Counted from the stretch's first letter, positions 10,050-44,372 are shown. The stretch: 64,000 nt of DNA from Candidatus Harrisonbacteria bacterium (GCA_016214655.1 JACROC010000004.1:26084-90083), one strand, 5' to 3'. Made by a program: numbers and translations. The notes: a model not told the origin generated them from the letters alone.

Positions 10050-10601
10050 TTAGATATCAGTGCTCAATTTTTTAAATAATCTTTTAGCCCGGAAAAGGCG
10101 CATTTTTAATGTCGGAATGGAAATCTTTTCCAGTTTGCAAATATCAGCGTAGGATTTGTCATCCAAATAATAATATTTTAAAACCCTCCCCAGATGTTCC
10201 GGCATTTTGGCAATAACTTCCTGAACTGCGGATTTAGCATCGTGGATAGTCGCCAAATCGTGATTTTCTTCCAAAGTATCCTCATACAAAAGCGGGTCAA
10301 GATATTCCACATTGCTGCCGCTTTTCTTTAGTTTTTGATAATGAGTGAAAGCGGTATTCATCAAAATCTTATAAGCCCAACTCTTAAATTCAATGCCCTC
10401 TTCTTTTTTAAACTTGTGGCCATAACGGTAAATCTTGGCAAAAGTCTCCTGAACAATATCTTCCGATTCTTCCTGATTGCGCAAAACGCCAAGCGCCTTG
10501 CGTAAAAAAGCCGCCTGGTACTTATCTACCAGCAAAGAAAAATAAGACGGGTCGTCCTGAGACAAGCGTAAAATCTCTTCGTCTTTAAGCGTATTTTCCA
10601 T
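10050..10601 (-). CDS. ECF-type RNA polymerase sigma factor (sigma-70 regions 2 and 4)
   Basis: 183 aa. Region 2 reads DIVQETFAKIYR and region 4 reads SYADICKLEKISIPTLKMRLFRAKRL. Confidence 0.8.
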   Translation of the reverse strand: MENTLKDEEILRLSQDDPSYFSLLVDKYQAAFLRKALGVLRNQEESEDIVQETFAKIYRYGHKFKKEEGIEFKSWAYKILMNTAFTHYQKLKKSGSNVEYLDPLLYEDTLEENHDLATIHDAKSAVQEVIAKMPEHLGRVLKYYYLDDKSYADICKLEKISIPTLKMRLFRAKRLFKKLSTDI

Positions 10602-10662
10602 AATAGAACTATTATATATAACTACCAGGGAATTAAAAAGTTCCCGGAGAAAAAGAATAATT

Positions 10663-10737
10663 TGGTGCGCGGTAGAAGGATCGGACTTCTGGCCTCGTCG
10701 ATGTCAACGACGCGCTCTACCACTGAGCTAACCGCGC
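10663..10737 (-). tRNA. tRNA-Val(GAC); CCA encoded
   Basis: Reverse complement GCGCGGTTAGCTCAGTGGTAGAGCGCGTCGTTGACATCGACG...GCGCACCA forms a cloverleaf with anticodon loop TTGACAT. Confidence 0.8.
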
Positions 10738-10743
10738 AGAATG

Positions 10744-10815
10744 TGGGTGTGGAAGGAATCGGACCTTCGGCCTCTGTCTTATCAGGACAGCGTTCTACCA
10801 CTGAACTACACACCC
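10744..10815 (-). tRNA. tRNA-Ile(GAT); CCA not encoded
   Basis: Reverse complement GGGTGTGTAGTTCAGTGGTAGAACGCTGTCCTGATAAGACAG...CCACACCCA has anticodon loop CTGATAA. Confidence 0.8.
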
Positions 10816-11007
10816 TATTTTTTAAGTACTTCCTCTGCTTTCCCAATCTGGAATCGCACTACCGCCGCCTGTTCGACGGTTGTCCCTGAAAAGGCGCGAT
10901 TCAGTGTTCCAACTAAAAACTGAATGACAACCATCGAATACGCGGCAACTATGATAAACAGTAAAATACCAATTGTTAAAAAAGTCAATTGTCGCTTATT
11001 GTTCATA

Positions 11008-11574
11008 TTATTGCGAAAATACTTTTCCCCTCATGGTTATCTCAAATTCTTTCCCCTTTTGAATCAAATCCAGTAGGGTAAAGTTTACAAAGTATTGTCC
11101 GCTTTCTGCGGCTTTTAGAAAACGCAAAAAATTAGAATAGGATCCGTTGCTGGTTATTGTAAAATTATTAATTCCTGGCGCTAAGTCGGTAGACAAAACT
11201 TCCGACTCAAATTGAAAGCCGAAACCCAGCTGATTATCCTTAGCCAAATTCTCAAGATTTTTAGAAAAACCTATAAGCTGATCCTTGGTCGGAAGGGAAT
11301 TTTGCAGTTGATCGGATAATTTTTTGGCCCGTTCGGAATCAAAACGTAGAGTTGCCAGATAATTGAATACCTCGGACCGCTCTACCAAATCCCGCCTCTG
11401 CCGGATTACAGTGTCCAGTCTGCGGGAAATATCATTACCCAAAAGAATGGTTAATGCCACTAAAGCTAAAATTACACCGGACGCCACTCCGATATTCTTC
11501 AAAAGCCACCGATTAAAGTCAGTCATATTATTACTTTTATTGTACAATAATAATGGCCCTTGCCAAATTAACAA
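11008..11574 (-). CDS. hypothetical membrane-anchored protein (N-terminal TM plus coiled-coil; PilO/PilN-like topology)
   Basis: 188 aa with one N-terminal TM helix followed by a coiled-coil-rich region. No confident family assignment. Confidence 0.35.
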   Translation of the reverse strand: MLIWQGPLLLYNKSNNMTDFNRWLLKNIGVASGVILALVALTILLGNDISRRLDTVIRQRRDLVERSEVFNYLATLRFDSERAKKLSDQLQNSLPTKDQLIGFSKNLENLAKDNQLGFGFQFESEVLSTDLAPGINNFTITSNGSYSNFLRFLKAAESGQYFVNFTLLDLIQKGKEFEITMRGKVFSQ

Positions 11575-17359: not shown

Positions 17360-17444
17360 GCCGCCGTGGTGGAATTGGCAGACACGCACGACTCAAAATC
17401 GTGTGCTGAAAAGCATGTCGGTTCGACTCCGACCGGCGGCACCA
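17360..17444 (+). tRNA. tRNA-Leu(CAA), type II; CCA encoded
   Basis: GCCGCCGTGGTGGAATTGGCAGACACGCACGACTCAAAATCGTG...CGGCGGCACCA has anticodon loop CTCAAAA and a long variable arm. Confidence 0.85.
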
Positions 17445-17454
17445 AAATATTAAA

Positions 17455-17479
17455 ACCTGCTGTAAAGCAGGTTTTTTTA
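17455..17479 (+). terminator. rho-independent terminator after tRNA-Leu(CAA)
   Basis: CCTGCTGTAAAGCAGG followed by TTTTTTT. Confidence 0.55.
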
Positions 17480-18943
17480 TTAAGGTCTAAATTCAAAATT
17501 ACCAGGAAAACGGTGTCGCTTAGCATTCGGGTCATACGGCCCAAAGACTGTATGGGAAGAAAAGGGATTATTGATGCCGCCAAAATAAATAACTTTGGTT
17601 ATAGTCTTAGCGCTCTGCCAATCAAAATCCTGCAATTGCCTGCGTAAATTATTATCTCTCAGGCAGCGCCGGATAAACTCTCCCCTGCTCCTGGCCCGAG
17701 TTTGCGGAGCGTTAACAACCATTTCTTGAACCATTTTCGGATCAACCAAATGCTTTATCAAACCCCTCTCATTCAGCAGAGCAAATATGCTCTTCCGGGG
17801 AGAAGCGCTGATATTGTGGTATTCCATATTAATTTTAAATGCCTCCGAACTGTTAAGACCAAAATGCCATTTCTTCATTTGGTTTTCCAATAAAAACCAT
17901 TTGGTTGCCCAATCCAATTCGCCAACTAATTTTCTGACCGCCTTCGCTTTAAGTAATTCCAAAATCCTTTCCCATTCCTCCAAGCACTTTTTTTCCGCTA
18001 CTGATAATGGCTTAAGCTGTCTGGCGGCTCTCAGAAATAAATAATTATATTCAACCGCAGATATGGAGCGAGACTGGAGCTGAAAACGATAATCTAAATC
18101 AAATTTAGTATTAAAGCTATGAATATCAGCTATCGGCCGCTTCAGGGTCAGGCGATGTGGCAAGCGCCAGCCTTCTTCGGCTAAGCGCAAAACTAAATGA
18201 GTTATGGTGTCCACCAGCCAAGTCTGTAATTCACAGCGAGTCGCGTCTCGGGAAATCAAATGCATCCGGCTTAAACCACAGGAAGAATCCATCAACGGCT
18301 CTTCCCTGGTATTAATTATTGCGCGCTCCGCAGTCGTACATGAACCGGCCAGCCGCTCTAAGTGATTAGCGCGCTGGGAAAAACAATAAACAAATTTTCC
18401 TTCGTACACCTCATAGATATGGCCGTTTCCGCTCAAAGGCAGCGTAGCCGGTATAAAATTCAACAATAACCGTATAACCTCTTTCCGTTTCTCGATTGCA
18501 TAGGAATAATTGTGGTGGCTGCCATAGGTAACCTCTATAGAATTTCCTATTTCATCTTCACCAGGACCGACATTATTCTTGTAGAAATTAATTACTTTCA
18601 GGTGCCGGCTGTTAACAACCATTTGCGACGCGCGAAGCAGAATTAATTCGGTAGCCTTCTCTTGTAAAATACCGTCCAATGATCCGGCCAGATGTTCCGC
18701 GCCCGCTGCCTCTAATGACTGCTGATCCTTGTAAATTCTGGAACCGTTAGAAAGCCAATAATTGAAATCGGATTTAAAAGCCAAAGCCGGCGCAACTAAG
18801 GGAATTCTGGTAAGAACGGCGTCAATAATTGAATCTCTCCATTCCGAACGAACTTCATCATCATCCCGACAACTCCGCGGAATGGGAAAAATCGTAAGCC
18901 CATATTCTTGTTCTCGTCCGCAAAGCCGCTCTGGCATCGACAT
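17480..18943 (-). CDS. Pup-ligase family protein (PafA/Dop-like carboxylate-amine ligase), divergent paralog 1
   Basis: It contains the GxExEYG N-terminal motif (LCGREQEYGL) plus FYKNNVGPGE, SHHNYSY, INTREEPLMDSSCGLSRMHLISRDATRCE and PPQTRARSRGEFI. It shares roughly 45-50 percent identity with the adjacent paralog by eye. The ORF runs to 19063, but the likely start is ATG 18943 (MSMPERL). Confidence 0.7.
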   Translation of the reverse strand: MSMPERLCGREQEYGLTIFPIPRSCRDDDEVRSEWRDSIIDAVLTRIPLVAPALAFKSDFNYWLSNGSRIYKDQQSLEAAGAEHLAGSLDGILQEKATELILLRASQMVVNSRHLKVINFYKNNVGPGEDEIGNSIEVTYGSHHNYSYAIEKRKEVIRLLLNFIPATLPLSGNGHIYEVYEGKFVYCFSQRANHLERLAGSCTTAERAIINTREEPLMDSSCGLSRMHLISRDATRCELQTWLVDTITHLVLRLAEEGWRLPHRLTLKRPIADIHSFNTKFDLDYRFQLQSRSISAVEYNYLFLRAARQLKPLSVAEKKCLEEWERILELLKAKAVRKLVGELDWATKWFLLENQMKKWHFGLNSSEAFKINMEYHNISASPRKSIFALLNERGLIKHLVDPKMVQEMVVNAPQTRARSRGEFIRRCLRDNNLRRQLQDFDWQSAKTITKVIYFGGINNPFSSHTVFGPYDPNAKRHRFPGNFEFRP

Positions 18944-19023
18944 TCCTATTTTCAAGAAGCTAGTATCTACTATAATTTGGCTGGCAGCATTTGGCAAACC
19001 CCCGCCACAATAAAAAACCCGCA

Positions 19024-20571
19024 TTACTGCGGGGTATCCTTTTTTAAATTCAAATCCCGACAAAGCTTATCAATAGAAGAACTAGTGGGAACAAACGGGT
19101 TATCCTTTTCGCCAAAATAAATCATATCTTGATAATTATTGAATTTGGCCCCGTCCCAATTGAAACGAGTCACTTGATACCAAAGGCGGGAATTAGTTTT
19201 TATTAATTCCAAAAGATCGCCGCGGCATCTTGCGCGAGTTGGCGGCGGAACCAACATCGTCCGTACAATTTCCTCTTCATCTACTAAATGCTGAATATAT
19301 CCCCGCTCCTCTAATCTCGCATACCAGCTTAGATTCGGATCGTTGCTGATATTATGGTACTCCATGTCAATAAGCCAAGCTTGCGGATCGGATAATTCAA
19401 ATCCCTCCCTTTTCATCTGTCTTCGAAGCAATTTCCATTTGGTAACCCAATCCAGCTTACCGACTAATTTATTAAAGGCCCGAGCCATTAACAATTCCAA
19501 AATTTCCTCCCAAGCCTCCAGAGCTTTCTTTTCATTATCAGAAAGCGGGCTTAATTGTTTCGCCAGATCTAAAAACAAATAATTATATTCAAATAAATCC
19601 TTTTTACCGGACAAAAGAGCCAGATAGGGGACGGCGAGGCGTACCTGATAATCAAAATTGGCTTCCAGTGAAAAATTAATTGCTTCTAATTCTGCTCTCG
19701 GATCCTTTAAATCCGGCGGCAGAACTTTTTCGTCTTCAACCTCCTCGGCTATGCGCAAAACCAAATGCATAATAGCATCCACCAACCAAGTTTGGAATTC
19801 GCAGCGCGTAGCATCATGAGAAATAATATGCAAACGACTCAACCCGCAAGACAGATCCATCAATGGCTCATCACGAGTATTGACGATCCCCCTGTCTCCT
19901 CTCAAAGTACCGGATGATTTAAGAAGATTAATATGGGGTACGCGCTGAGAAAGAGTAAAACAAAACTGATTGCCAACGCCCAAACGATGGCTGCGATAAA
20001 CATGTCCGCTGCCGGTCAAAGGAAGACTGGCCGGAATAAAATTAGTCAGCAAAGCATACACCCTTTCCCTTTTGTTTGTCTGGTAAGAATAATTATGGTG
20101 ACTGGCATAACTCACTTCGTCATAGATATCGCCGCGCTCCCCTGGGCCGACGTTATTCTTAAATAGTGAAAATTCTTGCAATCCTCTCTCTGCGATCACT
20201 TTTTCTAAAGCCCTGTTCAGAATCCTTTCAGAGGCTTTTTCTTGCAAAACACCATCCAGAGAACACGGCTCATATTCGGCGCTAGCAAATTCCAGAATTG
20301 AACCAAGGTCAATATATGTTAAACCTCCATTTCTAAGCCACAAGCGATGATTATTAGATCTGGCGTCAAAAAAATAAGCACTTTCCGATTGCATTATCTT
20401 GAAAATAATTTCACTTACAAACTCGGCTCGCCATTGCTCGCGTAAAGCTTGGACACTCTGCACAAACTCCTGCTGCGTAAGAACAGTTAGGGGCGGGAAG
20501 GGAGGGGGCATAAAAACTGGAATAATCTTCATAGCATATTCCTGCTCGCGGCCCACAAGACGATTCTGCAT
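19024..20571 (-). CDS. Pup-ligase family protein (PafA/Dop-like), divergent paralog 2
   Basis: 515 aa. Motifs: MQNRLVGREQEYAM, LFKNNVGPGE, SHHNYSY, VNTRDEPLMDLSCGLSRLHIISHDATRCE, PPPTRARCRGDLL. The HPEY segment of canonical PafA is replaced by ILEFASAEYEP. Confidence 0.7.
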   Translation of the reverse strand: MQNRLVGREQEYAMKIIPVFMPPPFPPLTVLTQQEFVQSVQALREQWRAEFVSEIIFKIMQSESAYFFDARSNNHRLWLRNGGLTYIDLGSILEFASAEYEPCSLDGVLQEKASERILNRALEKVIAERGLQEFSLFKNNVGPGERGDIYDEVSYASHHNYSYQTNKRERVYALLTNFIPASLPLTGSGHVYRSHRLGVGNQFCFTLSQRVPHINLLKSSGTLRGDRGIVNTRDEPLMDLSCGLSRLHIISHDATRCEFQTWLVDAIMHLVLRIAEEVEDEKVLPPDLKDPRAELEAINFSLEANFDYQVRLAVPYLALLSGKKDLFEYNYLFLDLAKQLSPLSDNEKKALEAWEEILELLMARAFNKLVGKLDWVTKWKLLRRQMKREGFELSDPQAWLIDMEYHNISNDPNLSWYARLEERGYIQHLVDEEEIVRTMLVPPPTRARCRGDLLELIKTNSRLWYQVTRFNWDGAKFNNYQDMIYFGEKDNPFVPTSSSIDKLCRDLNLKKDTPQ

Positions 20572-20635: not shown

Positions 20636-20667
20636 TAGAATCAAAAGGGTCCGACTGGGTCGGACCG
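20636..20667 (-). terminator. hairpin plus U-run just downstream of the Pup-like gene (possible attenuator or terminator)
   Basis: On the minus strand, GGTCCGACCCAGTCGGACC is followed by CTTTTGATT. Confidence 0.35.
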
Positions 20668-20675
20668 ATATATAA

Positions 20676-20873
20676 TTATTCTCCACTCTTCTGCCGGTAT
20701 TCCTGATTAAGCTCTTGCGGATCGCGGTTGCGCGCATTCTTCAGAATATTGCCAAGCTCTTCATCCGCTTCCAAATCCTTCTCTTCTTCCTCTTCTTCCT
20801 CTTCGCCATTTTTCTTCTTCTTTTTAGGCTCTTCCTTCTTTGGCGGTTTCTCCGGCGGCTTTTGCTCGCTCAT
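20676..20873 (-). CDS. pup: Pup-like prokaryotic ubiquitin-like protein with C-terminal QKSGE
   Basis: 65 aa. The N-terminal half is Lys/Glu-rich and looks disordered. The C-terminus ELNQEYRQKSGE resembles the mycobacterial Pup C-terminus (YVQKGGQ) and ends in Glu. The gene lies between PafA/Dop-family genes on the same strand. Confidence 0.65.
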   Translation of the reverse strand: MSEQKPPEKPPKKEEPKKKKKNGEEEEEEEEKDLEADEELGNILKNARNRDPQELNQEYRQKSGE

Positions 20874-20891: not shown

Positions 20892-22361
20892 TTAAAGTCC
20901 TAAAATGGATTGTAGCACAACGGCCGTAGAATTATCAAGTACCGGATCCATCAGATCAACGGAAATATCCACTGAATCATTTACCCTAATCTTAATCCCA
21001 GACCAATCAACTTCCACCACCCGATCGCCTAATTTCTTCAAAAGTCCGCTTCTCAAAAACGCACGAGTATTAGCCGGCGCATCAAATTTAGCCGCCAGAA
21101 TCTGTTCATCCGTTACCAGCCGCTTGATTTTGCCAGATTTTACCAATTCGTAATAAAGGCCGTCACTAGCCACCTTCCGGAACAGCTTACTAAAGCCCAG
21201 TGCGGCATCCGGCTGCAATTTTGTAAGCGCCCAAGTGGTAGTCCAATCTAAATATCCGAAAGTTTTCATTGGATCCTTCTCTAGAATCTCCGACAACTCT
21301 AAAGCTTTTGCGACCGCCTGAGTATGCTGATCGGTCATTGGATGCACATTCAAATATTTTCCGGCAGCCAATAAGTACTTTCTCAATATTTCTAGACCAG
21401 TCATTCGCTGACCACCCTCTAAATCAATCATTTCTTTGAATCTGAGGTCGCGCGAGATTTTGATAATTGCTTCAACCGGTTTTTTAGGCAGCAACACTTC
21501 TTCCAAAAACCGGTCTTCAATCATGGCCAGAACTACTTGAGTCAAGGCAATCCGCAAAAAATCCGCGTATTCGCACATCAAGGCATCAGTAGAAATATCA
21601 TGAAGGCGGAAATATTTTTTAGCCGTAGCATGCGGTTCGTCACGCAAATTGAAAATCGGGCGGCTTTCCATGGTATTAATAGCCACCAATCGTTCAAAAA
21701 AATCTGCTCGCTGAGATAACTGGAAAGCGCAAGATGGGCGGTCATTTTCACTGCCGACTTTACCGCCTCCGGTCAAAATAATTCTGCTGATTTGGAATGG
21801 TAAATAATGTTGCAATAAATAAAGAAAGTTATCTTTCTCGGAAACCAAATCCCGGCTTAAAAGAATATTGAGATGGGAACCATAACTCTTGCCGGCGCCA
21901 TCGCTGTTATTTTTATGAAGCACAATTCTGTCCTTGCGGCTGGCCAGTTGGTTTAAATAAAGCCGCAAAGCATCCATCATCACCAATTCGCTGGCTTTGT
22001 CATGAACGACCAAATCCAACGGATTCAGGCACTCTGGGGTGGAATATTCCGGATGATCAACGTCCATATAAAATCGAGCGCCATTGCCCAAAAATCCGTC
22101 CAATTCCGGACCGATATTATCTGCTAGGACGTCATGAGCCGTTTCTTTAAAAAGACCGGCTACATCTTCCAAGGTAATAACGCTGGTTCGGCGGGCTTCT
22201 TTAGATTTATCATGACGGACTGCTTTTTGATATTTCAAAAATTCTTTTACAAAACTGCGCAAAATCTCCCGATATTCATCTCCCAACAATTGATTCCCGC
22301 CTTGGTCAAGAACTGAAAAACCGAATTCATTTTCTATCCCGCAAACCTTAGAGATAGCCAT
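20892..22361 (-). CDS. Pup ligase/deamidase family protein (PafA/Dop), canonical-like
   Basis: 489 aa. Strong matches to PafA signature blocks: CGIENEFGF, GNGARFYMDVDHPEYSTPEC, LHKNNSDGAGKSYGSHLN, FQLSQRADFF, SRPIFNLRDEPHATAKKYFRLHDISTDALMCEY. It sits immediately upstream of pup, as dop does in actinobacteria. Confidence 0.8.
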   Translation of the reverse strand: MAISKVCGIENEFGFSVLDQGGNQLLGDEYREILRSFVKEFLKYQKAVRHDKSKEARRTSVITLEDVAGLFKETAHDVLADNIGPELDGFLGNGARFYMDVDHPEYSTPECLNPLDLVVHDKASELVMMDALRLYLNQLASRKDRIVLHKNNSDGAGKSYGSHLNILLSRDLVSEKDNFLYLLQHYLPFQISRIILTGGGKVGSENDRPSCAFQLSQRADFFERLVAINTMESRPIFNLRDEPHATAKKYFRLHDISTDALMCEYADFLRIALTQVVLAMIEDRFLEEVLLPKKPVEAIIKISRDLRFKEMIDLEGGQRMTGLEILRKYLLAAGKYLNVHPMTDQHTQAVAKALELSEILEKDPMKTFGYLDWTTTWALTKLQPDAALGFSKLFRKVASDGLYYELVKSGKIKRLVTDEQILAAKFDAPANTRAFLRSGLLKKLGDRVVEVDWSGIKIRVNDSVDISVDLMDPVLDNSTAVVLQSILGL

Positions 22362-22420: not shown

Positions 22421-22449
22421 ACAAACAAAAACCCGACTTCCGTCGGGTA
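22421..22449 (-). terminator. rho-independent terminator after the ARC ATPase gene
   Basis: On the minus strand, ACCCGACGGAAGTCGGGT is followed by TTTTTGTTTGT. Confidence 0.45.
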
Positions 22450-22457
22450 CTAATTAC

Positions 22458-24281
22458 TTAACCAGCAAATCCTGTAATCGGCTTATTCACAGCTTCCTTG
22501 AAATTGTTTTTCAATCTTTCGACCTCTTCATCAATAGCCATGAAAAAATCCTTCTTTTTGATATCGGCAACCGGGTCCTTTTCACCAGCTACTTTTGATC
22601 TATGATATCTTTCTAATGCAATCATTTTGGCGCCATCAACGATACTCTTAATAATCGCACCGGAAAGATAGTTCTTCAACATCACATCTTCATTGCCCTT
22701 TACAGTTTCAACCCGGAAAATATTATTAACTGTCAATTCGGTGCCATCGCTAAATCTGATTTTAACTTCTCTGCCAGTATACGCCAATCGCTTAGCAATA
22801 AGATCGATGAAATGCTCGCGAATTTTTTCTAAATCACCACTCAGAACTACCTCCTCCTCTTCACCACTACCAAAAGAATCAATATATTTGTAAATATGGT
22901 TTTCAAGATATTTTCTAGAAAACGGGAGGTCGGCAGCAAGATAAATCCGGAGGATTTCTTTGACATCCCGCATGGTTTTAGGACGAGGAATAAAAACATC
23001 AACACCTAATCTTCCGGGACGTAAAATTGCCTTGTCCACTAAGTCCTTACGATTAGTCGCGGCCAAGACCAAGATATTTCCCAGGGGATCCACTCCATCA
23101 AGAATTTGATTAAACTGACCAATGTCGGTCGCCATCCAAGGCTCATGCTCCGAGGTGTCACGGCTCCGAAAAAGCGAGTCGATTTCATCTATGAAAACTA
23201 CCACTAGCGCTCCTTCAGCTGCCTTTTCTTTGGCTCTAGCAAAAACTTCCCGGATTTTTCTGGCAGTTTCGCCTACATATTTATGGGTAAGTTCTGCTCC
23301 GCCAATATTCATGAAAAAGCAAGGCAAACCCAACGATCGTCCGAGGTCCGCACCGATGGCTTTAGCGCAAAGAGTTTTTCCGCAGCCCTCTGGCCCATGA
23401 AGAATCAAGCCCTTGGGCATATCCTTTCCCTTAAAAACCTTCACGTAAACTTCTCTCTCTTTAAATGGCAAAAGGATGCGCTGGATTTTCTTAACCGATT
23501 TGGAAAGGCCGCCAACCTGATCCCAAGTGATATCGCTGACATTCTGCAGATCTAAAAAGTGCTCTGACTCTTCGGTTTTGGGTAAAACCCGAATCAGCAC
23601 CCCGCCGCAATTCAAAAGCCGGTCTCCGTCTTTTAATCTCGTTTCTTTCAAATCTGGACTGATATAGCATTGCTGTATCTCGTTATGAGAACTCTCGACT
23701 TCTGCCAATTCCGGATTAATATATGACCGGAAAGTAACAGCCGAGCCCCAATTCCAATATAGCTTAGTCACTTCCACGACCTGACTCTTCCCGTTAACAC
23801 CCACTTCCCAGCCGGATTTTAAATCAGTAGCCTTCGTATTTGGTATTGCCAGCGGCAATTTTCTAAACTGTCCTTCAATTAATACATCAACCTCTTCCAG
23901 TTTGCCGCCGGGATGAGGCCGGACGAATATGCCGTAAGTAAGAGGCGGAGAAGCTAATTGCTCCCGCCATTTCTTACGCCAATTCTCGACCTCCTCCAGC
24001 GCCTTTTTATAACGCTCTTTTTCCTTGGCGCACTCTACCAGTCTCTTCAACAGCCTCTGAATCTCCTCTGATAGCTGGACCCGCTCATGGCGAAGCTGTT
24101 GATTCTCCTCCGCCTTCGCCTCAAGACGCTTGATTCTTTCGTGTGCATCTTGTAATTGATTTAGTAATTCTTTCTCTTGGTGATTCTCCTTTTGGGCGTT
24201 TCCACTTTTCCCTTTTCGTAAACGCTCGAGAAAAACACTTAAATCAGACATTTTCCATTTCATATCCAAATCCCTTATCAA
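22458..24281 (-). CDS. ARC/Mpa-like AAA+ ATPase (N-terminal coiled coil, OB-like region, single AAA module)
   Basis: 607 aa. The N-terminal coiled coil reads ELLNQLQDAHERIKRLEAKAEENQQLRHERVQLSEEIQRLLKRL. It is followed by a beta-rich OB-like region, Walker A GPEGCGKT and Walker B VVFIDEIDS. The C-terminus is ...KPITGFAG, with no GQYL/HbYX tail. Confidence 0.75.
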   Translation of the reverse strand: MIRDLDMKWKMSDLSVFLERLRKGKSGNAQKENHQEKELLNQLQDAHERIKRLEAKAEENQQLRHERVQLSEEIQRLLKRLVECAKEKERYKKALEEVENWRKKWREQLASPPLTYGIFVRPHPGGKLEEVDVLIEGQFRKLPLAIPNTKATDLKSGWEVGVNGKSQVVEVTKLYWNWGSAVTFRSYINPELAEVESSHNEIQQCYISPDLKETRLKDGDRLLNCGGVLIRVLPKTEESEHFLDLQNVSDITWDQVGGLSKSVKKIQRILLPFKEREVYVKVFKGKDMPKGLILHGPEGCGKTLCAKAIGADLGRSLGLPCFFMNIGGAELTHKYVGETARKIREVFARAKEKAAEGALVVVFIDEIDSLFRSRDTSEHEPWMATDIGQFNQILDGVDPLGNILVLAATNRKDLVDKAILRPGRLGVDVFIPRPKTMRDVKEILRIYLAADLPFSRKYLENHIYKYIDSFGSGEEEEVVLSGDLEKIREHFIDLIAKRLAYTGREVKIRFSDGTELTVNNIFRVETVKGNEDVMLKNYLSGAIIKSIVDGAKMIALERYHRSKVAGEKDPVADIKKKDFFMAIDEEVERLKNNFKEAVNKPITGFAG

Positions 24282-24359: not shown

Positions 24360-24968
24360 TTAATCAGCGCTTGCTCTGCAGCCGGGACACAGACATCCCT
24401 CAGCCTTTTTCCATCGCGGATACCTATAAAGGCCGCCGGATAAACAAGTTAGATAGGTGTGAAATCCGGATCTGCCGGTAAAATGCAGATCCACTTCCCG
24501 CATCTTCCAAGTATCGCCTCCTGGCCAAGCCTGTAGGGGATTATTTAATGAATACCAGACTCCGTCACGCTCTTGCCAGCGATCAGAAACCCAGCCTAAA
24601 GTGTAACGATAGCTGCCAGGAACCAACTCAAATTCAACTTCTTTGCAGCTTTTAAGCTGTTCGTAAGATTCGATTAAATTTCCAATTACCGGAAAAAGCT
24701 TTAATATCCCAAACACAAAATTCCTAAGCAGATCAATTCGTAACAAGAATCCGGTTAAATAAAGAAAAGCTGCAACCAGAGATACATTAAATAAAAAATT
24801 AAGGAAAAGGTTTCCGGTAAAAGAAAATCCTATTTTCTCAAAAAGCCCCCAGGCCAACACCCAAAGATAGTATAAAACATAGGCAAGTATAGAAAAGATT
24901 GCCCAAAAAAGAAGCCCTTCTTTCTGAATCGCCGACTGCCTAGCCCAAAATCCCTTCTTCTCTCCCAT
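24360..24968 (-). CDS. hypothetical polytopic membrane protein
   Basis: 202 aa with several TM helices. No family recognised. Confidence 0.4.
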   Translation of the reverse strand: MGEKKGFWARQSAIQKEGLLFWAIFSILAYVLYYLWVLAWGLFEKIGFSFTGNLFLNFLFNVSLVAAFLYLTGFLLRIDLLRNFVFGILKLFPVIGNLIESYEQLKSCKEVEFELVPGSYRYTLGWVSDRWQERDGVWYSLNNPLQAWPGGDTWKMREVDLHFTGRSGFHTYLTCLSGGLYRYPRWKKAEGCLCPGCRASAD

Positions 24969-40842: not shown

Positions 40843-40963
40843 CCCTAGCAAATCCTACTTTCTCGCCAACTCGAAGTCGGTAATATCATCGGAGATATAG
40901 GCTTTCACTTCCGAGTTCGGAATGGGATCGGGTGGGACACCTATAGCTAAATCACTAGGAGAC
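40843..40963 (-). rRNA. rrf: 5S ribosomal RNA
   Basis: The reverse complement contains GTCCCACCCGATCCCATTCCGAACTCGGAAGTGAAA, matching the 5S consensus. It lies about 60 nt downstream of the 23S 3' end. Confidence 0.8.
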
Positions 40964-41023
40964 AAAATAATACACGGATTTTAAAAAAATGTAATTAAGA
41001 ATGAATACTAACTTAAGAGGTCA

Positions 41024-44372
<3,349 letters not shown>

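Follow-up and report, generated by a model that had tools for sequence, protein, structure and literature searches.

What does a cell do with two adjacent, divergent members of the PafA/Dop family of protein-tagging enzymes when a third, more conventional member is encoded directly upstream? The question is raised by a 64,000-nucleotide stretch of DNA from Candidatus Harrisonbacteria (GCA_016214655.1, JACROC010000004.1:26084-90083; hereafter the window, with coordinates counted from its first letter), a chromosomal segment of the Parcubacteria group of the Patescibacteria, or Candidate Phyla Radiation (CPR), whose host we take to be a groundwater bacterium with a tiny genome. An initial annotation of this stretch had pointed to two tandem, very divergent PafA-family paralogs with an altered HPEY region, and had proposed that they may be regulatory pseudo-enzymes, substrate adaptors, or enzymes with a changed nucleotide or acceptor specificity. 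We place the pair in a five-gene cassette that appears to be a lineage-specific variant of the Pup and UBact protein-tagging systems without proteasome genes at the locus, and we favour, with a probability of roughly 0.55, the reading that both paralogs are active, specialised tag ligases.

The open reading frames (ORFs) lie where the initial annotation had put them, and their family membership was borne out. Paralog 1 (19024..20571, minus strand, 515 aa) and paralog 2 (17480..18937, minus strand, 485 aa from the ATG at 18937) match Pfam PF03136 (Pup_ligase) far beyond chance, with E-values of 2.2e-61 for the former and 5.9e-68 for the latter read as a 487-aa protein (208.6 and 230.3 bits, respectively, against a gathering score of 25), and the more conventional 489-aa member upstream matches at 1.1e-101. 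An alignment of the two paralogs over 497 columns shows 46% identity (BLASTP E 2e-132); with the 489-aa protein each shares some 25-29% and with the solved PafA and Dop about 27%. The 515-aa and 489-aa products each have a 100% identical counterpart in an NCBI assembly of a Candidatus Harrisonbacteria bacterium. Four blocks had been described as identical in the two copies: NNVGPGE and SHHNYSY are, and the other two differ, the long block agreeing at 23 of 29 positions (VNTRDEPLMDLSCGLSRLHIISHDATRCE versus INTREEPLMDSSCGLSRMHLISRDATRCE) and the last one reading PPPTRARCRG versus APQTRARSRG.

The pair recurs in a fixed setting. In all loci long enough to judge, the order is AAA ATPase, Dop-like enzyme, tag, paralog 1 and paralog 2 (the window, L001, L002, L003/L004, L005, L006, L008-L011 and L087-L090; synteny in at least 12 loci), with the AAA gene always first. 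Within the window, the cassette begins with an Mpa/ARC-like AAA ATPase (22458..24281, minus strand, a 607-aa ORF with a TTG start, the true start probably lying a few codons further in), followed by the gene for the 489-aa Dop-like Pup_ligase member (20892..22361, minus strand) and by a 65-aa Pup-like tag gene (20676..20873, minus strand) that lies in the 320 bp separating the genes for the 489-aa and 515-aa proteins. The paralog pair then occupies the slot that is held by prcB-prcA-pafA in canonical operons. The usual flanks, rpoBC-rpsF-ssb-PAP2 on one side and parB-relA/spoT-topA-dprA on the other, are core chromosomal context. A search of 5.8 billion proteins returned a paralog clade of about 36 clusters at 90% identity, beyond which the next matches were actinobacterial PafA at 31% identity, and a second search of 1.84 billion proteins (4431 family members with E <= 1e-3) returned about 19 clade representatives at 50% identity. 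The clade is represented by three loci in a set of 185,579 species genomes, assigned to Ca. Paceibacter, Ca. Harrisonbacteria and simply 'bacterium', and by nine more in Joint Genome Institute (JGI) metagenomes (L008-L015 and L038, of which L012 is the same contig as L003). So far, all members of the paralog clade come from Parcubacteria-type contigs.

The alteration of HPEY is real in both paralogs, and the strings that the initial annotation had quoted for this region were exact on re-reading. Paralog 1 reads DLGSILEFASAEYEPC, with 20275-20310 (minus strand) encoding DLGSILEFASAE, that is, the beta3/4 loop and the start of beta4 (D88-LGSI-L-E94-FASA-E99) at PafA-like length with a one-residue insertion. 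The corresponding region of paralog 2 is DQQSLEAAGAEHLAGS, in which 18695-18727 (minus strand) encodes DQQSLEAAGAE (D-QQS-L-E-AAGA-E), at Dop-like length and without the insertion; the 489-aa protein has DVDHPEYSTPEC at the same segment. The His, Pro and Tyr are thus replaced, giving ILEF and SLEA, but neither paralog has lost the Glu of HPEY or the catalytic Asp. The same holds throughout the clade, where the consensus is x[LIF]Ex, with the Glu alone invariant. HPEY does not act as a set of four catalytic residues: the Glu (E70 of beta4) is the one member named as belonging to the active site (bioRxiv 10.64898/2026.04.10.717840), the PafA/Dop literature that we searched gives no function for the His, Pro or Tyr, and other branches of the family carry HLEY, HLEW, HIEW, DLEY, QLEL or YVEW.

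To map catalytic residues we compared a clade alignment of about 44 members with 158 canonical PafA and Dop sequences, in which about 90 columns are at least 97% conserved. The alignment check that had been proposed for the initial annotation gave a divided answer: all catalytic residues are conserved, and the motif mapping was not shifted. Paralog 1 keeps E9, E11, D88, E94, E99, H158, N160, R210, R227, R233, E235, R246, H248 and D253, and the set is likewise conserved in paralog 2. In Dop numbering, the clade retains G6, E8 and E10 (GhExE), N87, G88 and Y92, the catalytic D94, E99 (the Glu of HPEY), E104 (the Glu of the AE motif), K116, E119, K142-N143-N144 (KNN), H155 and N157 (HxN), Q204 and R205 (SQR), R221, N225, R239 and H241 (RLH), D246 (x4D) and E251. 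The catalytic Asp and R221 (PafA R201) are 100% conserved; the Arg of the NxR motif, R227 (PafA R207), is Arg in 82% and Lys in 18% of members, and the Glu that follows (E229) is kept in about 73%. In the clade alignments the core residues D, E, E, H, N, R, R and D never vary, and this includes second-position copies. Superfamily motifs were defined by Iyer et al. 2008 (PMC2588565) as GhExE in strand 1, acidic residues in strands 2-3, [HQ]x[NH] in strand 4, [QH]x4D in strand 6 and two arginine fingers, and all five classes are present here, as GREQEY, D..LE....AE, SHHNY, SQR / R / NTR, and RLHIISHD or RMHLISRD. The residues for which PafA experiments exist are also covered in the clade (D64, R201, R207 and T197); in the Corynebacterium glutamicum enzyme D64 is the base, and R201 and R207 as well as the Thr and Arg of the alpha-loop are essential.

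Structure prediction was in line with the alignments. AlphaFold2 (AF2) models of the two proteins reached a pLDDT of 89.3 and a pTM of 0.91 for paralog 1, and 89.0 and 0.90 for paralog 2. The best Foldseek matches of both models are Dop and PafA (TM-scores 0.75-0.84 and 0.76-0.82, respectively; E 1e-27 to 1e-31 to 7oxy, 4b0r and 4bjr), with TM-scores of only about 0.4-0.5 to YbdK/GCL. Both paralogs are therefore predicted with high confidence to adopt the two-domain PafA/Dop fold, C-terminal domain included.

If the catalytic machinery is kept, what has changed? At otherwise conserved positions, the clade differs from canonical enzymes at H97, P98 and Y100, and by E156 to H/Q, R180 to S/A and K188 to H. 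Two rim arginines are replaced, R162 (PafA R137) by T/A/S/I and R238 (PafA R218) by S, the position of PafA R442 is G/S, and the equivalent of K444 is kept. In PafA, R137, R218, R442 and K444 form a positively charged substrate-recognition rim, of which R137, R218 and R442 confer recognition of protein substrates and leave the chemistry on free lysine unaffected (PMC10465538). The cryo-EM complex of PafA shows the substrate touched by the beta3/4 loop (63-66), the SS hinge and an extended loop (196-216); in the clade, a longer variable segment replaces the hinge, the beta3/4 loop is variable, and the extended loop carries lineage-specific insertions and deletions. The change at HPEY would be one part of a clade-wide remodelling of the target-facing rim that takes in the hinge, the beta3/4 loop and three rim arginines and leaves metal, phosphate and catalytic residues untouched. 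As for the proposed change of specificity, the acceptor option is the one favoured, by the loss of R137, R218 and R442, the rebuilt beta3/4 loop and the acidic/basic split described below.

Both paralogs appear from their sequences to be PafA-type. On the basis that they fill the prcB-prcA-pafA slot and show PafA states at the three most informative positions (H188 in 89%, A72 in 86% and A74 in 82% of the clade), we assign them to this side of the family. The residues that discriminate PafA from Dop comprise His188, Ala72, Thr73, Ala74 and the Val65 insertion, together with the PafA-specific Gly66-Ser67, Ser50-Ser51 hinge, Trp190, Glu191, Ser194-Ser195 and Arg199 (Hecht et al. 2020, Table 1; PMC7947786). 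The beta3/4 insertion plus G-S is found, in the window's pair, in paralog 1 only, and the clade does not retain the SS hinge, W190 or E191. The alpha-loop consensus, SQRAxHI....S..TT..R...N, is like that of PafA and unlike Dop's SQRADFFEVEVGLETTLKRPIIN, and at the Dop discriminators (Phe/Tyr208, Ser101 and Pro103) the paralogs have H, A and A. Neither NCBIfam equivalog model claims them: they score 158.3 and 172.5 bits with PafA (TIGR03686), far below its cut-off of 551.3 bits, and 157 bits with Dop (TIGR03688, cut-off 492.3), which is not above their own PafA scores. A neighbour-joining (NJ) tree places the paralog clade outside canonical PafA and Dop, a placement that may be due to long-branch attraction.

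The 489-aa protein, by contrast with the pair, leans to Dop on each of these measures: it matches solved Dop at 1.3e-65 and solved PafA at 4.3e-45, scores 297.6 bits with the Dop model and 241.6 with the PafA model (both below cut-off), finds Dop as its next database matches (37% identity) after about 40 CPR orthologues, and carries the Dop discriminators F208, S101 and P103 without the beta3/4 insertion. It is a probable deamidase and tag-removing enzyme, judging from these residues. This enzyme and its roughly 40 orthologues have peculiarities of their own. HENY has become HLN[IMV]L and RLHVIxGD has become RLHDISTD; Trp47 of the Dop-loop is His in the window's protein and Tyr in 74% of relatives; and W343 to A, K366 to A/S/T, D390 to L and H394 to R are changes at four positions that canonical PafA and Dop and the paralog pair keep. 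The Dop-like gene is split in L003 (8263-9723; 403 + 78 aa) and intact in L004 (7187-8647; 486 aa), with the same downstream proteins, so that the split is likely a sequencing frameshift; the case cautions against reading pseudogenes from these assemblies.

The most regular difference between the two copies is their charge. Paralog 1 has an isoelectric point (pI) of 5.7 and a net charge of about -9, paralog 2 a pI of 9.1 and a net charge of about +11. All 10 loci compared have an acidic or near-neutral first copy (pI 5.2-7.1, with one locus at 8.7; charge -19 to +5) and a strongly basic second one (pI 8.9-9.8; charge +8 to +31), a count that is not a probability because the loci are related. 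The clade as a whole is bimodal, with 25 proteins at pI <= 6.8 and 18 at pI >= 8.2, and the median pI is 6.0 for canonical PafA and 5.2 for Dop. The two copies in one genome are between 41% and 68% identical, in some cases more alike than orthologues are, a pattern suggestive of gene conversion or renewed duplication: the pairs of L002 (10001-12992) and L005 (7995-11095) are 68% and 53% identical, with orthologues between genomes at 44-54%. Even in these recently homogenised pairs the charge asymmetry persists. Mean orthologue identity is 48.1% at position 1 and 48.5% at position 2, 53.7% for the Dop-like protein and 52.4% for the AAA protein; both positions evolve at an equal rate, similar to that of the neighbouring Dop-like and AAA genes.

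Is there anything in the locus for these enzymes to attach? The tag gene, the context of the Mpa-like ATPase and the charge dichotomy had all escaped the initial annotation. The tag (MSEQKPPEKPPKKEEPKKKKKNGEEEEEEEEKDLEADEELGNILKNARNRDPQELNQEYRQKSGE) is a disordered, Lys- and Glu-rich protein of 65 aa with a Gly-Glu end; it has 12 Lys and 21 Asp plus Glu, finishes in EYRQKSGE, and is annotated in the source record as 'hypothetical protein HZB99_01215'. An ORF of 60-71 aa occurs at the same position in every related locus that we read, ending in [YF]RQK[SPGA]G[EQ] or similar, and the same ORF scan on unrelated loci recovered canonical Pup (ending in NAEEFVRSYVQKGG[QE]) and UBact (ending in KRMRKVDPKQAERYRQRTG[EQ]). 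The curated Pup (Pfam) and UBact (NCBIfam) models did not match any of six CPR tags at E <= 10, and the assignment consequently rests on position, on the C-terminal G[EQ] and on pairwise hhalign comparisons. In these, the CPR tag profile aligned with the C-terminal half of Pup, from an alignment built in this analysis, with a probability of 91.5% (E 8.4e-7), and with UBact with a probability of 24.5% (E 8e-4). A database search with the tag alignment returned just eight clusters, all unnamed or 'hypothetical'. The tag is bipolar, a Lys-rich block being followed by a Glu/Asp block with a run of eight Glu and then by a Pup-like C-terminal third, and its median Lys count in the CPR is 13, versus 4 in Pup and UBact. 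The tags of several relatives end in Gln, and for this reason we expect that a Dop-type enzyme would handle deamidation.

The AAA protein resembles the proteasomal ATPases of tagging systems, and the proteasome itself was not found. It matches Pfam AAA (2.8e-30), the proteasomal-ATPase OB N-domain (3.4e-4) and NCBIfam pup_AAA (TIGR03689, 3.4e-84), the last with 283 bits under a 505-bit cut-off. The C-termini of the CPR AAA proteins (22458-22500 in the window; L001-L090) lack both the Pup-type TGQYL and the UBact-type NQII ends, and the proteins share an internal [IL]GF shortly before variable tails, which fit an absent 20S partner or a different one. Searches (phmmer) with PrcB and PrcA from UBact loci, verified as Pfam Proteasome, found no homologue in the 64-kb window or in 12 CPR loci.

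Our favoured reading draws on gene content, synteny, residue conservation, the predicted fold and the charge dichotomy, and from sequences and models we infer that the enzymes are active, that they ligate rather than hydrolyse and that they serve separate substrate pools. One PafA-type ligase would have been duplicated and both copies retained as non-redundant. Each paralog, catalytically competent and ATP-dependent on the strength of its conserved residues and fold, would place a phosphate on the gamma-carboxylate of the C-terminal Glu of the tag and then pass the tag on to lysines, with the conserved Asp of the beta3/4 loop serving as base; the Dop-type enzyme would deamidate and remove the tag, and the Mpa-like unfoldase would read it, in a locus that encodes no 20S particle. 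Since electrostatics is documented in the substrate choice of PafA, the acidic and basic copies would, by analogy, most likely address different, complementary acceptor populations. It is also possible that the two enzymes engage the Lys block and the Glu block of the tag differently, tag-on-tag chains included.

Several observations weigh against this reading. First, the two copies differ on average by about 23 charges, and these are distributed along the entire chain and surface with no focus on the active-site rim, which fits heterodimerisation or localisation as well as substrate choice. Second, net charge was the sole consistent position-specific trait that we found. Two other markers were tried and rejected: an NJ tree did not cleanly separate positions 1 and 2 into two orthogroups, the L002 and L005 pairs each clustering with themselves, and a beta3/4 loop of 4 residues in the first copy and 3 in the second was seen in only 7 of 12 pairs, one being swapped. 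Third, nucleotide-pocket residues are altered as well (H231 to L, A232 to M, N248 to T and G245 to R), and as H231 stacks in the nucleotide pocket of Dop, an altered nucleotide preference is possible; going by these substitutions, the nucleotide specificity of the paralogs may have changed. Fourth, the His of HPEY is at least 97% conserved in canonical PafA and Dop, and its loss could be weightier than we assume. Fifth, the NTRDEP segment is degenerate in some second-position copies (L003 position 2 and P0026). Finally, the absence of proteasome genes covers 64 kb plus flanks. A Ca. Harrisonbacteria metagenome-assembled genome (MAG; L006, 8001-10749) counts among these points too, its two ligase-type genes looking disrupted, copy 1 by an internal deletion of about residues 378-450 with a change of frame and copy 2 by a frameshift near residue 363, next to an intact Dop-like gene; this is either lineage decay or an error of MAG assembly.

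The main rival to two independent ligases is an obligate heteromeric ligase, in which the acidic and basic paralogs would be joined by charge complementarity as a heterodimer or domain-swapped pair, using one or both active sites and clamping the bipolar tag between the subunits. We regard it as a serious but doubtful candidate. The two genes are always together and adjacent, their charge differs in 10 of 10 loci with the difference lying over the whole surface, and within-genome identity that sometimes surpasses that of orthologues (68% in L002) would fit co-evolving partners as well as gene conversion. Furthermore, PafA forms a domain-swapped dimer through beta1/alpha1, the GCS2 relatives are dimers, and Iyer et al. 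(PMC2588565) proposed heterodimers for paired PafA paralogs. That predicted pair, however, proved to be PafA and Dop, which are separate enzymes (PMC3511204). Moreover, neither copy lacks any part of the catalytic set, although a partner serving as an obligate scaffold could do without it, and a terminator-like hairpin and a promoter-like site between the genes hint at separate expression.

A pseudo-enzyme in the pair, with one copy (the basic second one being the likeliest) acting as regulator or substrate adaptor along the lines of the initial annotation, seems improbable to us. A few second-position copies have lost parts of NTRDEP or show H241 to Q (L003 position 2 and P0026/P0246), and the basic copy is furthest from the family's usual charge. 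Yet the second-position copy of the window and most others hold every superfamily catalytic residue, and H241 to Q is permitted by the [QH]x4D motif (PMC2588565). The lost His of HPEY might be taken to favour inactivity, but it cannot mark one copy as dead because the loss is equal in both. Equal evolutionary rates at the two positions, in step with the neighbouring genes, a fully kept catalytic set and the predicted PafA/Dop fold do not fit a pseudo-enzyme, and we disfavour this suggestion.

Alternatively, one copy could be a second tag-removing hydrolase or a tag transferase, such that the cassette would comprise one ligase and two hydrolases with different substrate ranges. The Dop-like length of the beta3/4 loop in the window's paralog 2 points that way, the direction of the reaction is evolutionarily labile given that twenty substitutions turn Dop into a ligase (PMC7947786), and PafA itself can shift Pup between substrates (PMC5358908). 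Conversely, both copies have the PafA-type alpha-loop His188, the alpha-loop being the discriminating element, along with Ala72/Ala74, loop length is not consistently tied to gene position, and a conventional Dop-like enzyme is already present in the cassette, all of which makes this option hardly likely. Lastly, that the paralogs only happen to lie beside the cassette and act as carboxylate-amine ligases on a small molecule or peptide would agree with their scores far under the PafA and Dop equivalog cut-offs and with the rebuilt rim, but is very improbable, as the tag gene is strictly adjacent in all loci, the complete PafA/Dop architecture is predicted (TM-scores 0.75-0.84 versus about 0.4-0.5 to YbdK/GCL), and positions outside the catalytic core that are conserved in PafA and Dop are kept by the clade (W343, D362, W363, K366, H394, T432, R433 and R437).

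How does a cassette with two tag ligases compare with known systems? The UBact system reportedly occurs in Nitrospirae, Verrucomicrobia and other Gram-negative phyla, and Parcubacteria-type candidate phyla are said to be among its carriers. It shares with the CPR cassette a non-actinobacterial Pup-like tag, ending in YRQRTG[EQ] in UBact and in YRQK[SPG]G[EQ] in the CPR, although by profile the CPR tags are nearer to Pup than to UBact. In the canonical UBact loci that we recovered, the tag is separated from a single PafA by PrcB and PrcA, and the AAA protein ends in NQII; neither is true of the CPR cassette, and we know of no report of duplicated ligases in UBact systems. Corynebacterium and Bifidobacterium keep pupylation with an ARC ATPase and no 20S particle. 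They likewise have a tag, a ligase, a depupylase and an AAA unfoldase without 20S genes, but their PafA, Dop and Pup are canonical and their ligase is single. A tag system without 20S implies a non-proteasomal outcome, that is, unfolding or remodelling, or hand-over to another protease.

With the actinobacterial Pup-proteasome locus (Mpa - Dop - Pup - PrcB - PrcA ... PafA), the cassette shares the family PF03136, the order AAA, Dop-type enzyme and tag, the G[EQ] end of the tag and the catalytic residues, and the CPR tag profile resembles the C-terminal half of Pup. By contrast, the actinobacterial locus has prcB/prcA and a GQYL end on its AAA protein, both of which the CPR locus lacks, and the CPR tag has about three times the lysines of Pup. 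The CPR ligase-type proteins are about 27% identical to PafA, have x[LIF]Ex in place of HPEY and have lost R137, R218 and R442, and there are two of them, whereas PafA is called the 'sole ligase' of the canonical system (PMC10465538, PMC12053664). Planctomycetes and Plesiocystis have single, deep-branching Pup_ligase homologues (Iyer 2008; Hecht 2020) that are similarly divergent, non-actinobacterial and unlinked to proteasome genes; the non-clade representatives nearest to ours have Q in [QH]x4D, as is typical of such proteins. These homologues differ in keeping HPEY-like motifs (DHPEY, SHLEY), in being single-copy, some with transmembrane insertions, and in having no acidic/basic tandem pair beside a Dop orthologue.

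The enzyme family, its chemistry and Pup-like tags outside Actinobacteria were already known (Iyer 2008; Hecht 2020). The statement of the initial annotation that such a pair had not been described for pupylation systems agrees with the searchable literature, to which the 2017 UBact paper (Lehmann et al., BBRC) did not belong. Within that same scope we found no description of a conserved tandem pair of opposite-charge, ligase-type genes, of the clade-wide x[LIF]Ex with a rebuilt rim, of a lysine-rich tag that escapes the models or of a proteasome-less five-gene cassette, and literature searches on pupylation in CPR, Parcubacteria or Patescibacteria returned nothing relevant.

The reading frames and the signals between the genes add some detail on expression. 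The ORF that contains paralog 2 extends to a TTG at 19063 (527 aa, 17480-19063, minus strand), and the parB gene comes next after it. The initial annotation had dismissed a 40-codon extension of this ORF in favour of the ATG at 18943. The extension (18938..19063, the 40-codon part being 18944-19063; minus strand) is indeed spurious and overlaps the end of paralog 1, but the preferred start is the second ATG, at 18937, two codons further in: homologues begin M-x-x-RLCGREQE, the ATG at 18937 gives MPERLCG, and an AGGA lies six bases upstream, and from homologue N-termini and AGGA-N6-ATG we deduce a protein of 485 aa. Terminator-like hairpins matching the consensus of a GC-rich stem plus T-run, all on the minus strand, straddle the stop codon of paralog 1 (19018..19033, CCCGCAGTAATGCGGG followed by TTTTTTA) and follow directly after the tag gene (20648..20666), after the AAA gene (22431-22448) and after paralog 2 (17452-17475), and 19 such sites were found in the region against 9.8 expected. 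Promoter-like (sigma70-like) consensus matches precede paralog 2 (18997-18969, minus strand) and the tag gene (20938-20909, minus strand). Because its promoter-like site comes after the paralog 1 hairpin, paralog 2 may be partly expressed on its own, and the arrangement of these candidate signals suggests that the cassette may be transcribed in tuned segments instead of as one unit.

Between the end of paralog 2 and parB lies a tRNA-Leu(CAA) gene on the opposite strand (17360-17444, plus strand), for which, as for paralog 2, the hairpin at 17452-17475 could be a bidirectional terminator, to judge by its position. One other locus (L088) has a 386-aa PF03417 (AAT) gene inserted between the second paralog and parB (10389-11549), from a family of Ntn-hydrolases. 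At the other end, an ORF at 24360-24968 (minus strand), flanked by PAP2 and the AAA gene, encodes a predicted membrane protein of 202 aa without a family match. This ORF was considered as a hidden protease or proteasome subunit and rejected, being a membrane protein without a family match that is missing from some loci (present in L001, absent in L002), and it probably lies outside the cassette. Elsewhere in the window, the 23S rRNA gene (41013-44351, minus strand) is 3339 nt long against a 2925-nt model, an excess of about 400 nt such as has been reported for rRNAs of the CPR; a 5S gene (40843-40959, minus strand) comes after it, and the window has no 16S gene next to them.

Textbook accounts give pupylation a single ligase: PafA by itself tags hundreds of substrates, and its way of selecting them is an open question (PMC10465538; bioRxiv 10.64898/2026.04.10.717840). 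In the CPR cassette the chemistry is kept, the substrate-facing rim is rebuilt, two ligase-type genes of opposite charge stand side by side, and the locus has no proteasome genes. A bolder proposal, which we put forward tentatively, is that proteasome-independent tagging with two oppositely charged ligases would be a first E3-like diversification of ligases in such a system, which would either partition the proteome by surface electrostatics or jointly build, from the lysine-rich bipolar tag, tag-on-tag chains to be read by the Mpa-like unfoldase. Because its tag gene is annotated only as a 'hypothetical protein', the system is invisible to standard annotation. A very reduced genome still keeps five genes for a ubiquitin-like pathway, and the cassette is thus a natural experiment on how specificity is encoded in the PafA/Dop fold, and on what purpose tagging serves without 20S.

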